DNA of 64,000 nucleotides from Caldora sp. (GTDB lineage: Bacteria; Cyanobacteriota; Cyanobacteriia; Cyanobacteriales; Coleofasciculaceae), in the NCBI GenBank assembly GCA_965222765.1, contig CBDCVG010000043.1, forward strand, positions 33,053 to 97,052, given 5' to 3'. Positions 40,991 to 48,516 of the stretch are shown here, piece by piece; within the stretch, counting starts at the first letter, position 1, and the number at the start of each line of letters is the position of its first letter. The position numbers and the translations under genes are program-made. The notes under the pieces are model-generated. The model searched no databases and was not told the DNA's origin. It saw only the letters and a program-made list of their open reading frames with translations.

Positions 40991-42553
40991 ATGACTGCTG
41001 CGTTCAACTCTCGCTCATTGACTGATCGCTCCGGTTCCCTCTCTGAGGCATCATCGGTATTTGACGTCATTGTTATTGGCTCTGGAATTGGAGGACTAGT
41101 AACAGCAACCCAACTAGCTGCCAAAGGAGCCAAAGTACTAGTACTGGAGAGCTACATCATTCCTGGTGGTAGCTCTGGCTATTTTGAGCGAGAAGGGTAT
41201 CGCTTTGATGTAGGAGCATCGATGATTTTTGGCTTTGGTACCCAGGGAACGACTAATCTCCTCACTAGGGCACTTGAAGCAGTGGATGTTAGCTTGGAAA
41301 CTATTCGGGACCCTGTGCAGATTCATTATCATCTTCCTGCTGGTTTGGAGCTGAAAGTTCATCAAGATTATGAGAATTTTTTGCAAGAACTAACTGCTCA
41401 CTTCCCGCAAGAACGGGAAGGTATTCGCAAGTTTTATGACGAATGTTGGAAGGTATTCAACTGCCTGAACTCGATCGAGTTACTGTCTTTGGAAGAACCC
41501 CGGTATCTAATGCGGGTATTTTTCCAAAATCCGCTGGCTTGTTTGGGTTTAGTCAAGTACTTGCCTCAGAATGCAGGTGACATTGCTCGCAAGTATATTA
41601 GTAACCCCCAATTATTAAAGTTTATTGATATGGAGTGCTACTGTTGGTCAGTTGTACCTGCTGACAAGACACCAATGATTAATGCTGGGATGGTATTCTC
41701 AGACCGACATTATGGTGGCATTAATTATCCTAAAGGAGGTGTAGGTAAAATTGCCCAAAAACTGGTGGAGGGATTGGAGAAAGCTGGGGGTCAGATTCAG
41801 TATAAGGCGAGAGTAAAGGAAATTCTGACTCACAATGGCAAGGCAGTGGGTGTCAAGCTTACCACTGGTAAGGAATATCGAGCCAAGCGAATTGTCTCCA
41901 ATGCTACCCGGTGGGATACTTTTAATAAATTGTTGCCAGCAGAGAAGATGCCAGCAGCAGAAAAGAGGTGGCAACAACGTTATCAGAAGTCACCCAGTTT
42001 TTTAAGTTTGCACTTGGGAGTTGAAGAGTCAGTTTTCCCAGCAGGTACAGAATGTCACCATATTGTGCTAGAAGACTGGGAAAAAATGGAAGACCCAGAA
42101 GGCACAATTTTTGTTTCAATTCCTACTCTGCTTGATCCAGATTTAGCACCAGCCGGCTACCATATTGTCCACACTTTTACTCCTAGTTGGATGTCAAATT
42201 GGCAGGGATTGTCTGTCAAGGAATATGAACAGAAAAAGGAAGATGCAGCACAACGCTTGATTGAAAGATTGGATAAGATTTTTCCTGGTTTAGATGCCGG
42301 ACTAGGCTATATGGAGATAGGTACGGCACGCAGCCATAAACGGTTTTTAGGTCGAGAAGATGGGACTTATGGTCCAATTCCAAGGCGCAAGTTAATGGGG
42401 TTGTTAGGGATGCCGTTTAATCGCACAGCAGTACCGGGATTGTACTGTGTGGGTGATAGTACTTTTCCTGGACAGGGTTTGAATGCAGTAGCATTTTCCG
42501 GATTTGCCTGTGCTCACCGTATAGCTGTGGATTTGGGAATTGTTAATTGTTAA
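40991..42553 (+). CDS. crtH: FAD-dependent carotenoid isomerase/phytoene-desaturase-family oxidoreductase (CrtH-like)
   Basis: [29 protein letters not shown] dinucleotide-binding fold. About 520 aa, the length and layout of cyanobacterial cis-carotene isomerase. Confidence 0.6.
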
Positions 42554-42674
42554 TTGTTAATTGTTAATTGTTAATTGTTAATTGTTAATTGTTAATTGTT
42601 AATTGTTAATTGTTAATTGTTAATTGGTAATTGGTAATTGGTAATTGGTAATTGGTAATTGGTAATTGGTAATT
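42538..42674. repeat. STRR array: (TTAATTG) about 13 copies then (TTGGTAA) about 7 copies
   Basis: Direct reading. It begins inside the last codons of crtH. Confidence 0.9.
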
Positions 42675-42734: not shown

Positions 42735-43466
42735 TTAAACTAATTCCGATGGATCGATTCCGAGTTCTCTTAATCGTGCGGCGAGCCGCTCGGCTCGTTC
42801 TCGTTCGTATTCAGCTCGTTCTCGTTCGTATTCAGCTCGTTCTCCTTCTTCACGATAAGTTCGTAAATATTCTTGAGCCTGAGGATTAAAAAACCGCAAT
42901 TGACCATCTCGAAGTAGATGCATCTCTAACCCTAACACCTGAGAAGGGAAAGAAAGTGTTCCATCTTCTAAATGATTGGGGGTGAGGACTTGATAGTTCT
43001 GTTTCACTAAACGCCGCCCTTTCAGTGCTGGCTTAAGATAATCTCCAGTGGGGTCATATTGGAAATATTCCGACACACCCATTCGAGCATAAGTATCCGG
43101 TTTCTCTCGTTCGTCCTTATTTCGGGTACTTCTAGAAGTCACCTCTAGAATCCAGTCCGGCGTTTTCCCACTTTCTTCCCAAACTTTGTAACTTCTGCGG
43201 GGACGATTTTCCACTCCAAAGACAACAAACACATCAGGACAAACAACCGCATCGGGAACCCCTTGCTCGTAAGATAGCCACAGATTACCGGAAACGTAGA
43301 CATCTGTACGATGTTGAAAATAGAGTTTGAGGGATTCAACACCATAAACCAGATAATCTCGATTGGGGTCGCTTTCTGCCATAGGAGAGCCGTCGGGTTC
43401 TGGATAAACTATTGGGGTTTTCAGATGTGCTTGAGTCATGGCTGGTGAATCTGTAGCAGACCGCAA
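42735..43466 (-). CDS. Uma2-family endonuclease with C-terminal (ERAEYER) repeat tail
   Basis: Uma2 core (DYLVYGVESLK...YEQGVPDAVVCPDVFVVFG...). C-terminus encoded by a cgttctcgttcgtattcagctcgttctcgttcgtattcagctcgttc duplication. Confidence 0.7.
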   Translation of the reverse strand: MRSATDSPAMTQAHLKTPIVYPEPDGSPMAESDPNRDYLVYGVESLKLYFQHRTDVYVSGNLWLSYEQGVPDAVVCPDVFVVFGVENRPRRSYKVWEESGKTPDWILEVTSRSTRNKDEREKPDTYARMGVSEYFQYDPTGDYLKPALKGRRLVKQNYQVLTPNHLEDGTLSFPSQVLGLEMHLLRDGQLRFFNPQAQEYLRTYREEGERAEYERERAEYERERAERLAARLRELGIDPSELV

Positions 43467-43555: not shown

Positions 43556-44203
43556 TCACAAGTTGTACAAATTCTTGAACCAATTCACGAACGTCTGAGC
43601 TTTTGGATGCTTGGGATCTAGAATTCTCTCCATGATGGCATTGTGTAGTTGTCTTCCTGGTGGTTCTTGCCAAGCTAGCCAAGTGAAAATGTGAGCTTTA
43701 TCTAGATGAACATCTTTGAAAGGTGCGTTTCTATTTTTAGCTGCTGATACTGCTTCTTGAGCATATTCCCAAAGTGGTTCACTCTCATCTGGAACCAGGT
43801 ATGCCAAGAAAGTTTCCAACATTCCTCGCATTTTGTTATCTGGCATAATCCAGACACCAAACTTAACCTCATTTGGCAGGCAATGAATTAATCCTGTCTC
43901 AGGCAGTTCTTCAGGGATATCATGAATAGCTGGTAAACAAGAATTCCTTATACTCTGCCATCGTCCGGATGGATTATCATCAGCATCTACCATTAATCCT
44001 AGAGAGGTAAGTCCTGATGCTTTTAATTCCGTAGAAATGGTTGACGGTTCAATAACATTTCTGTCGCCATCAAGAGATTTAATATAGACAATTGGGTTAT
44101 CTTTTATTCCCCAGTCAATTCCGTTAGCTTCTATCAAATAAGGTATAGTTCGTTTCTCTTGTTCACCTTCCACTAGCAAAAGATTTTGGTGTCTCTTTGC
44201 CAT
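43556..44203 (-). CDS. DUF4276/RloB/AbiLii-like small protein with TOPRIM-like acidic motifs
   Basis: NLLLVEGEQEK (Glu) and LMVDADDNP (DxD), reminiscent of the TOPRIM catalytic E ... DxD. Its start lies 3 nt after the stop of the upstream ATPase gene (operon). Confidence 0.55.
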   Translation of the reverse strand: MAKRHQNLLLVEGEQEKRTIPYLIEANGIDWGIKDNPIVYIKSLDGDRNVIEPSTISTELKASGLTSLGLMVDADDNPSGRWQSIRNSCLPAIHDIPEELPETGLIHCLPNEVKFGVWIMPDNKMRGMLETFLAYLVPDESEPLWEYAQEAVSAAKNRNAPFKDVHLDKAHIFTWLAWQEPPGRQLHNAIMERILDPKHPKAQTFVNWFKNLYNL

Positions 44204-44205
44204 AA

Positions 44206-45315
44206 TCAGCGCACCTCAATTCCCCGTTCTGCTGCAATGGCAATTTCTTTTTCGGTAAAAACTACACTTGTTTTTTTATCTGGTTCTATACGTTGAATGG
44301 TAATGCCATCAGCCGCTACGTCTTCCCGGCTGGCAATGGTAGCTAAGCTAGTCCAACAGTCACTGTTATGGGTAGTTGCAAAAACCTGCACATCTAGTTT
44401 TTTGGCTGTTTCCCAGATTAGCTTCCACATATCAGACAAAGTAGTAAAGTGGAGACCAGTATCAATTTCATCAATAAGTAGGACTCCTCCTTTTACAGAT
44501 ACAATTGCGAGTGCAAGTCCCAGCATACGCCATATTCCATCCCCTAAACTACCAATAGGTACACGTTGCTCACTGTCAGAAAGACGCACAACAAAGCCAC
44601 CGCGAGAACCAGAATACTTATATCTCCCAGAACTAACTGATGCAATACGCTCAATTCTAGGTTCAATAGTCTGAAGTGCTTCATATATAAGTTTTTCTTC
44701 CGCTGTCAGTACTATTTGCTCGAACAGTTCAGTCATTGTTTCTATAGTTAGGGAGGATGATCTGATTAATTTTGTTTTTGGGGTTAGCTTTTTATTAGCT
44801 ATGCGCCAGCTATGAATATCTTGATCAGAAAGATATAGACATCCATTAGGTGATAAAAGTGGTTGCCTGAATACTAGTGCGTCTCCATGAGTCCAATTAA
44901 TACTCAAATAAAGCCTTTTTGCTAACTCATGTAAGGGATCATCAACTGGAGTCTCAGCAAGCTGGTGACTAAGAATTGGATCTACTCCTATCGAGACAAA
45001 AAGCTTCTGTTGATTATGATCATTTATCCCTAATATAGAAAATGTACTAACTTTTTCAATGTCATGCCCATAAAAAAGATGACAAACATTAAGATCAGGA
45101 GCTTCTTTGTCATCATTCCAAGAATACTCACCTCGTTCAATCATTAGATCACGAAGCGGCTCAAGATTAGCCTGTGAACATAGCAGTTTAATTGCTTCTA
45201 GGATTGATGTTTTGCCACTGTTATTGACACCAACCAGCAAATTGACTCTACCAAGTTGCTGAAGCTCAAACGACTCGAAGCCGCGAAAGTTTTCTATCTT
45301 GAGAGTCTTCAACAT
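44206..45315 (-). CDS. AAA_21/ABC-type (OLD/AbiLi/RecF-like) ATPase
   Basis: LKIENFRGFESFELQQLGRVNLLVGVNNSGKTSILEAI (Walker A). VLLIDEIDTGLH (Walker B). FATTHNSDC (H-loop). Confidence 0.75.
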   Translation of the reverse strand: MLKTLKIENFRGFESFELQQLGRVNLLVGVNNSGKTSILEAIKLLCSQANLEPLRDLMIERGEYSWNDDKEAPDLNVCHLFYGHDIEKVSTFSILGINDHNQQKLFVSIGVDPILSHQLAETPVDDPLHELAKRLYLSINWTHGDALVFRQPLLSPNGCLYLSDQDIHSWRIANKKLTPKTKLIRSSSLTIETMTELFEQIVLTAEEKLIYEALQTIEPRIERIASVSSGRYKYSGSRGGFVVRLSDSEQRVPIGSLGDGIWRMLGLALAIVSVKGGVLLIDEIDTGLHFTTLSDMWKLIWETAKKLDVQVFATTHNSDCWTSLATIASREDVAADGITIQRIEPDKKTSVVFTEKEIAIAAERGIEVR

Positions 45316-45520
45316 AATCTCGTAGTTTAGGAGGCAATTGGCTGATATTAGGATAAGCGATCTTGAGTGCGATCGCTGCTAGGTATTAATTGCATCTTCA
45401 TGGAGAATTGGTATAAGTTATTTATGCACGGATTTTTAGAGATCGCCAAGCCTCAGCACTTAATCCAGTTTCTTTTCCGGTACTGATACTAAATCCGGTT
45501 ACGAAAACCCACTTAAGCAC

Positions 45521-46531
45521 CTACACAAAATTAATTACATATTCTTCACCAAAATTGTCAAGCACTTTTTTGAGATATTTAAGAAAACTGTCCCAGTTTT
45601 CGTAAGCATCAATTTCAATCCACTCATACTTAATAAATTTCCAGAGAATTTCGATTAAGTTATGCTTTGGCGAGTAAGTTGGCAACCAAAATATCTCTAA
45701 TTTTTTGGCTTTCCATTCTTCTAATTTTTCGAGTATTTTATCGCTTGTATGGATTGAAGCTTGATCCATAACTACAACAGTAATTTTTCTTAAATCTTTA
45801 CTATAATTATCTAAAAAGTTAATGACAATTTCACTGTCAATTGTACCCTGATGTATTTCGTAATCTAATTGATTTTCACATCCCATTAATCCCAGAACAT
45901 TTATTCTTTTACTTTGGCAACTCTTAAGAATTATTCTTTCTAACTTTTCTTGCCATCCGTAAGGAATATCTGGCTTCAAAGAAAATCCACTTTCATCTAA
46001 ATATCTTAAGTTAATTTCTCCTTTTTTAGCTTGCTCTTTTAGCTCTTCTAGTCTAGGCAGTTTCACCTCTAACTCCCACTCATCAGGGATTTTACTCATT
46101 CCTCTCTTCATTCTTTTCCATTTCATGTCCAACTTTTTTATAATTCTTTTTATTGTTTCTTTACTTACGTCTATTGACCATTCTTTACTGATTTTAAGTT
46201 TAACTTTTTTGAGGCTTTTGGGTTCAGATTTAACCCAGTTTTTTACTTGCTGTTTTTGCTCCTGATTTAACTTGGATTTTCTGCCCCTACCTTTTTGATT
46301 GTAGATTCCTTTTAATTGTTGATCTTCCCACCTAGTCAACCAATTATATATAGTTTTTCTATTAACTCTAAATATTGACGCTAATTCGTTAATAGAAAAT
46401 TTTTGATGACTCAACAGTATACATTTTGCTCTGTCTCTCACTTGAGGAAATTTACTTTGCCAACTTATTCTTTCTAAAAGCTTTTTTGTTTCGGCATTTA
46501 ATTCTCTAATAAATCTCATATGAATCACCAT
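45521..46531 (-). CDS. IS630/Tc1-mariner-family transposase
   Basis: N-terminal HTH (NELASIFRVNRKTIYNWLTRW). DDE region YLDESGFSL ... VMDQASIH ... LPTYSPKHNLIEILW. Confidence 0.8.
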   Translation of the reverse strand: MVIHMRFIRELNAETKKLLERISWQSKFPQVRDRAKCILLSHQKFSINELASIFRVNRKTIYNWLTRWEDQQLKGIYNQKGRGRKSKLNQEQKQQVKNWVKSEPKSLKKVKLKISKEWSIDVSKETIKRIIKKLDMKWKRMKRGMSKIPDEWELEVKLPRLEELKEQAKKGEINLRYLDESGFSLKPDIPYGWQEKLERIILKSCQSKRINVLGLMGCENQLDYEIHQGTIDSEIVINFLDNYSKDLRKITVVVMDQASIHTSDKILEKLEEWKAKKLEIFWLPTYSPKHNLIEILWKFIKYEWIEIDAYENWDSFLKYLKKVLDNFGEEYVINFV

Positions 46532-46671
46532 TTTGCCTTCTTTTATCTAAGGATATATTATTATTACTAAAATAGGCAATTAATTTTGTGTACCTGCTTA
46601 TATGAGAAATGTAACTTGTGATCACTGGTTGAATTCTCTCTGATTTGTTAGGGGAGGTATGGAAACCCGAT

Positions 46672-48516
46672 TCAGTATGATACAGTTCTGTATGCCTGAT
46701 AAGGGTGATTAGGTTGATCTGGGTATTTGAGTTCCAGTAAATTCTCTGAGAGCATTGGCTTGACGTAGTGGTTCCGGATGCTGTCTGGTTCGCGTCCCAA
46801 CAGGTCAGCTAATGTTCGGAGTTGGAGGTAATGTTCGGAGCAAAGTTTTAGAATGGCTTTCTCCACTATGCTCTTATCTACGCGACCTTTCTCACGGATA
46901 GGAGCTGCAATCTTCTGCAAACGCTCGTAATGTTCGGAGCTGGACTCGTAATGTTCGGAGCTGGACTCGTAATGTTCGGAGCTGGACTCGTAATGTTCGG
47001 AGCTTGGAAACAGTGAAAGCAAATCAGATTGATTTTGGTTTGGGAGAGTATAGTGGGTACCACGACCACGACCAAATTGTTCAAGCCAGCCCTTATTTAC
47101 AAGACGCTTGAGGCATTCGCCTATTTCTCTGGGATGCTCCTGTCTATAACACTGAATGTCAGCATTACTAATGTTTCCAAATCTATGGGCTAGTACCAGG
47201 ATAATTCGGTCTAGCTCAGTCAGACCGCAATAGGAGTCATCACCTACAATCTCTTTTAATTCCTTCTCAACATTTTCGGGTATCAGGCTGACCATTGATA
47301 GAGCAACAGATGTCAGCTCCAAGTCTAATTTTTCTGACACTAAGGGTTTAAACCATTGCTGCTCTCTCCAGGCACGGAGAATTTTCTGAAAACCAGAGCC
47401 TGCTTTTTCTCCTAAACCTAACATTTGAAACATCTTTTGCAGGTTCGGGTGACGAGCATCGCTAATACCACCTTCATAAAGACGCTGACGAGAGATTCTC
47501 AAACGACCGGGATTAGAGAAGAAGAAACCGTCTAATAGTTTAATAACTCTGATGGGACGTGTAGATTGATGGTCAGCATGGATTAGGGTATTAACTAAAG
47601 CTTCTCGCAGTGCCTCATGTACATGGGTTTCACCCTGACGCACAGCGCCCTTGTCAAGTTGAAATGGGACATCTAAATCATTAACTAAGCGACTATAGAC
47701 CCGATAGTAGAAGTTAAAAAGATTAGGCTCCCATCTTCCATCAATGGTTAAGCGATAAGTCCATCGTGTCTCTGGATCATCAGAAAGCTGCTCCTGGTAA
47801 TCAAGCTGGTAGTAAGGCAGGAAATCTTGGATAGTACGTTCACGACCGAACATAAGTAAACCAGCTAATGTTAATCCTTCTTTACCTGTGTTGCGATCTC
47901 TACGCCAACCACCTAGCTGACAGAGCAGATTCCGATCATCTAGAGCCAGCCAAGGGTGATCAGGTTCCCTGGAGCTAAACCGCTGGCGAAATGATTTCAC
48001 TGTTTCTGGATCGAGGTCAGCAAGTTCAAAACCTTCTAAAATTTGCAGGTCTTGAGGGCTATCGCTGGCATCCCGTATCATCTGCCACACTTCCTCTTTT
48101 GTGCAGCGGTAATCCCCCTCATAATTACGTTTGTAACTGCCAGTCATGGGATTATTGTTGATATACACAGGTCGCTGGGTACGTGCGGCTCTGGGTACCC
48201 AAATAGTGATTAAGCTGTGTCCATCAACTTTTGAAACGTTTACATCAGAGTTAGAGCAGATTGGGGTATTGAGTTTTTGTTGGTTGTTATGAATATCCCA
48301 GAAGTTTTTCTGTGCACCATTGGGGTTGCGTACTCCAGAAATGCTCAGCCTACCCTTAGTCTCACTTACACCGAGTACAATATAGCCTCCATCTGTATTG
48401 GCAAAGGCAGATACCGTTTCCCACAAATCTTTTGGTAATCCTCCATTGGCAGATTTGAACTCAAGGTCTTCATCTTCTCCGATATCTAGACGTTGTAGTA
48501 ACGTTTCTACATCCAT
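46672..48516 (-). CDS. AlbA_2 (Schlafen-like) + HATPase_c_4 + C-terminal HTH putative nucleic-acid-binding ATPase/regulator, with (SEHYESS)4 repeat insert
   Basis: N-terminus DLEFKSANGGLPKDLWETVSAFANTDGGYIVLGV (AlbA_2). 24-bp tandem ctcgtaatgttcggagctggact x4 at 46918-47012 encodes SEHYESSSEHYESS... Confidence 0.65.
   Translation of the reverse strand: MDVETLLQRLDIGEDEDLEFKSANGGLPKDLWETVSAFANTDGGYIVLGVSETKGRLSISGVRNPNGAQKNFWDIHNNQQKLNTPICSNSDVNVSKVDGHSLITIWVPRAARTQRPVYINNNPMTGSYKRNYEGDYRCTKEEVWQMIRDASDSPQDLQILEGFELADLDPETVKSFRQRFSSREPDHPWLALDDRNLLCQLGGWRRDRNTGKEGLTLAGLLMFGRERTIQDFLPYYQLDYQEQLSDDPETRWTYRLTIDGRWEPNLFNFYYRVYSRLVNDLDVPFQLDKGAVRQGETHVHEALREALVNTLIHADHQSTRPIRVIKLLDGFFFSNPGRLRISRQRLYEGGISDARHPNLQKMFQMLGLGEKAGSGFQKILRAWREQQWFKPLVSEKLDLELTSVALSMVSLIPENVEKELKEIVGDDSYCGLTELDRIILVLAHRFGNISNADIQCYRQEHPREIGECLKRLVNKGWLEQFGRGRGTHYTLPNQNQSDLLSLFPSSEHYESSSEHYESSSEHYESSSEHYERLQKIAAPIREKGRVDKSIVEKAILKLCSEHYLQLRTLADLLGREPDSIRNHYVKPMLSENLLELKYPDQPNHPYQAYRTVSY

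Follow-up and report, generated by a model that had tools for sequence, protein, structure and literature searches.

A two-gene cassette of an ABC ATPase and a DUF3226 protein in Caldora sp., with the predicted features of a split OLD-type TOPRIM nuclease module

The question raised by this locus is what a compact pair of adjacent genes does in the cyanobacterium Caldora sp. The pair lies in a stretch of 64,000 nucleotides (nt) of contig CBDCVG010000043.1 (positions 33,053-97,052), which is called the window here and in which all gene coordinates are given. An earlier reading made from the letters alone (the sequence-only reading) had proposed two open reading frames (ORFs) of 369 and 215 amino acids (aa), and both were found on the minus strand. 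Gene A (44206-45315) encodes a 369-aa, 41-kDa ATP-binding cassette (ABC) ATPase of the SMC/Rad50/OLD type, and gene B (43556-44203) encodes a 215-aa, 25-kDa protein. On balance, the pair is predicted to form a nuclease module of the OLD-type TOPRIM kind, regulated by the ATPase, whose role would be defence against phages or other mobile DNA, or abortive infection, and we consider this answer probable, at moderate confidence.

Both proteins were searched against Pfam and PADLOC with hidden Markov models, as the sequence-only reading had proposed, and PADLOC matches were considered up to an E value of 0.1. The small protein was a full-length member of the Pfam family DUF3226 (PF11536), with an E value of 6.8e-70 and a score of 235.5 bits (gathering cut-off, 27 bits) over positions 1-208 of the 208-position model. 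In PADLOC, it matched PDC-M38B models alone, and its residues 6-214 were aligned to positions 13-219 of 220 of PDLC04624 (E 4.1e-77). The top PADLOC match of the ATPase, by a wide margin, was PDC-M38A (PDLC04611; E 1.2e-91, residues 1-369 against positions 1-383 of 383). The best named match was AbiLi (PDLC02336; E 2e-49, residues 1-369 against positions 1-340 of 340), followed by AriA (9e-26, in two partial stretches) and then GajA and PtuA, and HEC-01A was matched weakly (1e-14). The ATPase resembles each of PtuA, GajA and AriA to an equal degree. Its Pfam matches were AAA_15 (7e-25) and AAA_21 (1e-18), together with SMC_N and AAA_23. The matches of both proteins are far beyond chance.

The window pair matched both PDC-M38 models end to end, with the same gene order, adjacent and co-oriented. 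As judged from sequence, it is a member of PDC-M38 and DUF3226 by each feature examined, with no structural difference. PDC-M38 is one of the 145 candidates of PADLOC described by Payne et al. in 2024 (bioRxiv 10.1101/2024.01.29.577857), and it was built from at least two types of ATPase-then-partner cassettes (supplement of the same work). The PDC candidates were nominated because their gene cassettes lie inside the loci of BREX, DISARM or type I restriction-modification (RM) systems (bioRxiv 10.1101/2024.01.29.577857). The cyanobacterial pairs differ in that they are mostly not embedded in RM, BREX or DISARM loci. DUF3226 comprises 875 clusters at 90% identity (word-indexed) and 2,157 clusters at 50% identity (exhaustive), and a homologue was confirmed in at least 586 species. 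The representatives are 101-274 aa long, nearly all of them standing alone with a length of about 215 aa. Among the best 150 of the 2,157 representative clusters, no fusion to an ATPase was found. A 1,747-aa sequence (P0141; 9e-50, 27 matched stretches) was tried as a candidate DUF3226 fusion and rejected as an artefact, a low-complexity tandem-repeat translation.

The two genes are kept together. In total, 87 loci were fetched (L numbers below), consisting of 80 genome loci with the pair, each from a different species, 5 IMG/VR contigs and 2 plasmids. The pairing was obligate in this set: a homologue of the ATPase lay directly upstream of the DUF3226 gene, on the same strand, in 80/80 genome loci, and the same order was found in 5/5 IMG/VR contigs and 2/2 plasmids, the proteins of which are 26-38% identical to those of the window. 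No conserved third gene was found, the 544 flanking ORFs falling into 414 clusters, of which 354 were singletons. The divergence of the two proteins from those of the window was correlated (r = 0.75, 75 loci), and the ratio of nonsynonymous to synonymous substitution rates (dN/dS) was 0.09-0.37 for both genes, which indicates purifying selection. At the junction of the two genes (44204-44217, minus strand), the sequence reads GAGGTGCGC-TGA-TT-ATG. A GAGG Shine-Dalgarno sequence (44214-44217) lies within the 3' end of the ATPase gene, and 2 nt separate the stop codon of gene A from the start codon of gene B. The distance of 3 nt given by the sequence-only reading agrees with this, since the start codon begins at the third base past the stop. 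The layout of the junction suggests translational coupling. Comparably tight spacing was observed in 80/80 genome loci, with gaps of a few to about 50 nt and one exception at 253 nt.

We next consider whether the small protein is a TOPRIM nuclease. The motifs quoted by the sequence-only reading for both proteins were every one present by translation, and in the small protein these are LLLVEGEQE (44156-44182, minus strand), with the putative metal-site residues E12 and E16, and LMVDADDNP (43970-43996, minus strand), with the putative metal-site residues D73 and D75. Conservation adds D122, N123 and E130 (43814-43846, minus strand) and K169 (within 43688-43714, minus strand) as further putative metal-site residues. 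Among 59 diverse DUF3226 relatives of 32-57% identity, E12, D73, G116, W118, M120, P121, G127, E130 and W208 were invariant (59/59). Position 16 was acidic in 54 of them; position 75 was D in 50 and N in 9; position 122 was D in 50 and N in 8; and N123 and K169 were kept in 58 and 57, respectively. A secondary match to the Pfam family OLD-like_TOPRIM was observed in 21 of the 59 members (best, 4.1e-5), and any other secondary Pfam family was matched by one member only.

The AlphaFold model of the small protein (predicted local distance difference test score 80, predicted template modelling score 0.76) consists of a beta-alpha core followed by five helices, and the predicted structure has a TOPRIM fold. 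A Glu follows strand 1 and a DxD follows strand 3, with the strand ends as placed in the model: E12 and E16 come after strand 1 and D73-x-D75 closes strand 3, the last strand is followed by a loop and a first helix that hold D122-N123 and E130, and the conserved Lys lies in a later helix. The two-metal site of the class 2 OLD protein of Burkholderia pseudomallei (BpOLD) is formed by E400 and E404 (i+4), D455-x-D457, T506/E508 and K562, of which T506/E508 open the first helix of the helical domain (PMC6755086). E508 is in the first helix past the Toprim sheet, the place that E130 takes in the model. In order and spacing, the DUF3226 residues appear to mirror this site, the putative equivalences being drawn from order, spacing and modelled secondary structure. 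Gene B is thus predicted to encode a compact OLD-type TOPRIM domain with a helical domain, and the Glu...DxD reading of the TOPRIM motif is supported and extends to a full OLD-like catalytic set. Since the acidic residues are conserved and the TOPRIM reading is supported, the proposal of a split ABC-ATPase and TOPRIM-like pair of the OLD/AbiL/PARIS kind stands, with E12 and D73 invariant, OLD-like_TOPRIM matched by 21 of 59 relatives and AbiLi matched by the ATPase at 2e-49.

The ATPase carries a Walker A motif, GVNNSGKTS (45205-45231), a signature-like motif, IGSLGDG (44536-44556), a Walker B motif, VLLIDEID (44461-44484), which contains the LLIDEID quoted by the sequence-only reading, and an H-loop, TTHN (44365-44376), all on the minus strand and checked by translation. 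Over 40 homologues, the Walker A motif, the Q-loop region, SxGDG, the D-E of Walker B and the His of the H-loop were invariant or nearly so, and the ATPase therefore looks catalytically intact at the level of its motifs. A 100% identical homologue (P0271) has no encoding contig on record. In the structural model, the insert that divides the core into its N- and C-terminal halves consists of strands and short helices of no more than 11 residues, and no helix longer than about 18 residues was present anywhere.

An ATPase of this type could also belong to a housekeeping pair for DNA repair or processing, in which an SMC/Rad50/RecF-like ATPase works with a Toprim partner, as in RecF-RecR or SbcCD. 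The N-terminus of the ATPase indeed matches RecF and Rad50 models, SMC and Rad50 heads are among its top structural matches, the neighbours of the pair are mostly housekeeping genes, and the family, with about 60% identity from one cyanobacterial order to another, is well conserved under purifying selection. However, the NCBIfam matches to RecF, PtuA, Rad50 and others are far below the cut-offs and cover the P-loop region only, whereas the best full-length matches are defence-type ATPases, namely PDC-M38A, AbiLi and AriA. Moreover, the acidic residues and the Lys with which OLD performs cleavage have counterparts among the conserved residues of the partner. Small plasmids carry the pair as well, distant phyla have it at identities like those within the cyanobacteria, and it occupies different genomic positions in different genera and even in different Symploca species (L001 compared with the window and L084). 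We therefore regard a repair function as improbable.

Two-gene systems of an ATPase and a TOPRIM/OLD protein include AbiL, RloAB, an unnamed Nostoc system and PARIS, and the mechanism is understood for PARIS only. As split systems of an ATPase and a TOPRIM protein, both PARIS and AbiL have been validated. AbiL, which is plasmid-borne in Lactococcus, is a two-gene ATPase and TOPRIM/OLD-like system like the window pair. Predicted AbiLii superposes on an OLD nuclease. The window ATPase is of the AbiLi type; however, neither PADLOC nor Pfam, at E values up to 0.1, gave a signal of AbiLii or RloB for its DUF3226 partner, and the pair is therefore not AbiL in the strict sense.

In PARIS, a hexamer of AriA sequesters AriB, binding of Ocr frees AriB, and AriB cleaves tRNA. 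The window pair might work in the same manner, with an oligomeric ATPase scaffold that holds the TOPRIM protein until a phage anti-restriction trigger frees it, so that a dimer cleaves host tRNA. The split architecture is that of AriA and AriB, and the embedding of PDC candidates in RM systems fits a back-up of RM. The proteins themselves are different. AriA (55 kDa) and AriB (35 kDa) are much larger than the window proteins (41 and 25 kDa), and the small partner is, as the sequence-only reading had remarked, shorter than AriB. AriA has a coiled-coil insert that binds the trigger, whereas the insert helices of the 369-aa window ATPase are so short that the coiled-coil legs of AriA, with their trigger pocket, have no counterpart in its model. 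AriB is a DUF4435 protein, but DUF4435 was matched by one of the 59 DUF3226 relatives at an E value of 0.31, and no AriB model was among the PADLOC matches. Fusions of AriA and AriB exist, whereas DUF3226 showed no ATPase-fused form in the representatives compared above. Furthermore, Deep et al. hold that the other named two-gene systems of an ATPase and a toprim/OLD protein are structurally distinct from PARIS. Since a DUF4435/AriB signal and a coiled-coil ATPase are both absent, the pair is not PARIS, and we give a PARIS-like mechanism little chance of being the right one.

The OLD classes were defined by fused ATPase-Toprim proteins and by gene context, and PARIS has been proposed as a split class 4. 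Class 2 OLD (BpOLD, with PDB 6NK8 for its C-terminal region) and GajA are single polypeptides, whereas the window pair consists of two ORFs. The identity of the window protein to class 2 OLD is only 16%, and its candidate catalytic Lys lies elsewhere in the helical domain. Unlike in Gabija, no UvrD-like GajB helicase stands beside the window pair, whose neighbours are Uma2 and IS630 genes, and the families listed as neighbours at the 80 loci include no UvrD/PcrA-like helicase. A reverse transcriptase, as in OLD class 3 (retron), was found neither in the window neighbours nor in the top neighbour families; noncoding RNA (ncRNA) was not searched for. The pair, being unfused and lacking a partner of the helicase or retron kind, therefore belongs to none of the OLD classes 1-3. 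Two further systems from Hma loci, HEC-01 and HEC-04, have the logic of an ABC ATPase with an OLD-like TOPRIM in common with the window pair. HEC-04, a fused ATPase-TOPRIM protein, defends and needs the Walker A lysine and the E/D/D residues (bioRxiv 10.1101/2024.01.29.577857). The sequence relation of the split HEC-01 to the window pair is weak, confined to the HEC-01A match given above, with no match to HEC-01B.

The distribution of the pair was then considered. It is about 60% identical across the cyanobacterial orders, and relatives at 50-56% identity occur in cable bacteria, Planctomycetota and one gammaproteobacterium. The pairs of the cable bacteria (Ca. Electrothrix / Electronema) are L047, L053, L066, L067 and L071, and those of the Planctomycetota are L061, L072, L074-L076 and L079. 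The DUF3226 proteins of these two groups are 51-56% identical to the cyanobacterial one, a divergence like that among the cyanobacteria, and this suggests transfer of the pair between phyla. Two distant pairs (26-29% identity) are carried by small MOBQ mobilizable plasmids. The 6.4-kb ColE-type Citrobacter plasmid (L081, NZ_CP055541.1) carries, apart from its rep and mob genes, little else than the pair, and on the Acinetobacter plasmid (L082, NZ_CP038011.1), the pair adjoins BrnT/BrnA. The ATPase of the latter is annotated as two fragments and so may be disrupted. With its occurrence in distant phyla and on small plasmids, the pair appears to be accessory rather than core.

Such plasmids also bring up a toxin-antitoxin (TA)-like addiction module, in which the ATPase would neutralise a toxic TOPRIM nuclease, the module would persist as a selfish element of plasmids and chromosomes, and phage defence would be absent or incidental. 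Carriage as nearly the only cargo of a mobilizable plasmid, the BrnT/BrnA neighbour on another, the strict bicistronic layout and the co-divergence of the two genes would all suit addiction, and PARIS has been described as type II TA-like with AriA as the antitoxin. However, the ATPase gene precedes the nuclease gene and there is no small labile antitoxin, PDC-M38 cassettes are found inside RM, BREX or DISARM loci, and two Symploca species have kept the pair at one and the same place in the chromosome, for which addiction is not needed. TA behaviour and defence do not exclude each other either, as PARIS shows both. A module that serves addiction in place of defence is therefore unlikely in our view.

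In the favoured defence module, the two proteins would be made in fixed stoichiometry and would form a complex, in which the ATPase may sense a cue of a phage or mobile element and gate the nuclease. The activated TOPRIM nuclease would cut nucleic acid in a Mg2+/Mn2+-dependent manner, and nicking or degradation of DNA is slightly favoured over cleavage of tRNA or other RNA. The outcome would be destruction of the invader or abortive infection.

Several points weigh against this reading. The link of the small protein to TOPRIM comes from the predicted structure and the motifs, and the sequence evidence for it is weak, though consistent. The window protein scored 13.8 bits against OLD-like_TOPRIM, for which the gathering cut-off is 23.2 bits. 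When the DUF3226 profile was aligned to phage P2 Old with hhalign, the LLVEG strand fell on the expected strand (Old 392-439, EEVLLVEGKTE), but the match was weak (P 0.001, probability 20%). A Foldseek search with the model returned nothing significant, and the best hit of phmmer and profile hmmsearch against the PDB sequences was 1t6t, a Toprim protein, at an E value of 0.84; no solved structure for DUF3226 was detectable by sequence there. In addition, K169 is in the third helix after the sheet, whereas K562 of BpOLD is in the fifth. As for the function, both proteins are acidic (isoelectric point about 5.4-5.5), which gave no hint of a substrate, and no match to the pair was found among 50,697 GenBank phage records. 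HEC-01, the one split candidate of an ATPase and a TOPRIM protein examined by Payne et al., gave no defence in their assays, and the PDC candidates are called untested by Payne et al. (both bioRxiv 10.1101/2024.01.29.577857). In the literature search, no paper naming DUF3226, PF11536 or PDC-M38 was found; to this extent the pair is uncharacterised, as the sequence-only reading had it, but it is not new to the databases, being already catalogued as Pfam DUF3226 and PADLOC PDC-M38.

The neighbourhood of the pair belongs to the same side of the balance. Most genes immediately beside the pair in the 80 loci are of the housekeeping kind, such as MetH in 8 loci, tRNA synthetases, ABC transporters, GroEL and U32 peptidase. 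Genes that could be recognised as belonging to RM or other defence systems, including type I and type IIG RM, DpdF and others, made up about 10 of 147 immediate neighbours and were sporadic, and several PADLOC matches among the neighbours were generic ATPase or GTPase cross-matches. The term defence island, used by the sequence-only reading, is therefore too strong, and the pair is better described as a self-contained cassette that usually stands alone. What remains of that claim, and it holds weakly, is an accessory islet of about 6 kb in the window and an enrichment of Uma2. In a census around the loci with multiple seeds, Uma2 genes were found in 12 of 148 rank-1 and 6 of 139 rank-2 positions, compared to 5 of 791 positions at ranks of 3 or more (odds ratio 7.4, p 1e-5). 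Most of these genes shared the strand of the pair, and Uma2 was the only family enriched. The loci concerned are L001, L010, L017, L026, L028, L036, L038, L040, L050, L058, L060 and L068, and 8 of these 12 are Nostocales with one shared arrangement. The adjacency may reflect a shared insertion hotspot or a functional link.

In the window, the islet extends over about 42.7-48.5 kb and contains Uma2, the pair, an IS630 element and an AlbA_2 protein, with housekeeping genes outside. The Uma2, IS630 and AlbA_2 neighbours and a short tandemly repeated repetitive (STRR) array proposed by the sequence-only reading were all confirmed in place. One flank carries the genes of the pyruvate dehydrogenase E2 component, an alcohol dehydrogenase, a uracil phosphoribosyltransferase and a CrtH-like oxidoreductase; the other carries those of an HpnH-like radical SAM enzyme, an epimerase and penicillin-binding protein 1. 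The STRR array (42538-42674) separates the CrtH-like gene from Uma2 and consists of 19.6 copies of the 7-nt unit AATTGTT with 99% matches. The Uma2 gene (42735-43466, minus strand; PF05685, the PADLOC single-gene candidate PDC-S03) has a 21-nt in-frame repeat (42793-42848) that encodes ERAEYER units at the C-terminus. The IS630 element (45514-46600) is intact, with 30-nt inverted repeats (45514-45543 and 46571-46600) that are 87% complementary and a DDE_3 transposase of 336 aa (45521-46531, Pfam). It is inserted some 198 nt upstream of where the ATPase gene starts, with the AlbA_2 gene on its other side. The product of the AlbA_2 gene (46672-48516, minus strand) is a 614-aa protein with the Pfam domains SLFN_AlbA_2, HATPase_c_4 and Fic-like_C. 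It contains a perfect 21-nt in-frame tandem repeat (46924-47004, 3.9 copies, SSEHYE units), and its N-terminal half matches a PADLOC pAgo-associated model (1.7e-14).

The closest relative of the window pair is that of Symploca sp. SIO2C1 (L084), in which the ATPase is 91% and the DUF3226 protein 88% identical. It lies at the same site, beside the same CrtH-like, uracil phosphoribosyltransferase and alcohol dehydrogenase genes, without Uma2, and a more distant Symploca (L001) has the pair at another genomic place. Homology with SIO2C1 stops about 153 nt upstream of the ATPase ATG. The operon leader (45316-45468, minus strand), which probably holds the promoter, shares about 95% identity with its SIO2C1 counterpart, a conservation that exceeds that of the synonymous sites of both ORFs (dS 0.16-0.21). 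The leader contains a highly iterated palindrome (HIP1, GCGATCGC) and a hairpin, AGCGATC-N8-GATCGCT, centred on it. Taken with the list of homologues, HIP1 assigns the window to a filamentous cyanobacterium of the Symploca-like kind. A conserved operator or ncRNA in the leader was considered and rejected, for the leader is conserved in close relatives only; since more distant loci do not share it, it is not a defining part of the family. A promoter and terminator scan gave counts at background level and no convincing promoter in the leader.

The present result is a well-supported annotation of a credible but unsurprising defence-like module. A more specific proposal, which we put forward as a tentative possibility, is that the DUF3226 pairs are a distinct, minimal and obligately split branch of OLD that is especially common in cyanobacteria. 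Since the ATPase is modelled without a coiled-coil trigger pocket, it would sense infection differently from PARIS, and the nuclease would attack DNA by OLD-like two-metal cleavage and not tRNA. If this is true, it would provide the first function for DUF3226 and a new cyanobacterial defence family, possibly with the adjacent Uma2 nucleases.

As a candidate for a compact split OLD-type nuclease of 41 and 25 kDa, the pair is a tractable and attractive target for experiments. It could help with a question posed in the literature on OLD and PARIS, namely by what means TOPRIM nucleases are regulated by ABC ATPases, and whether this is alike in all pairs of an ATPase and a TOPRIM protein. If defence is confirmed, a first function would be assigned to a family of about 2,157 clusters in at least 586 species, one of the candidates of PADLOC would be validated, and the pair would be among the few defence families characterised for filamentous cyanobacteria.

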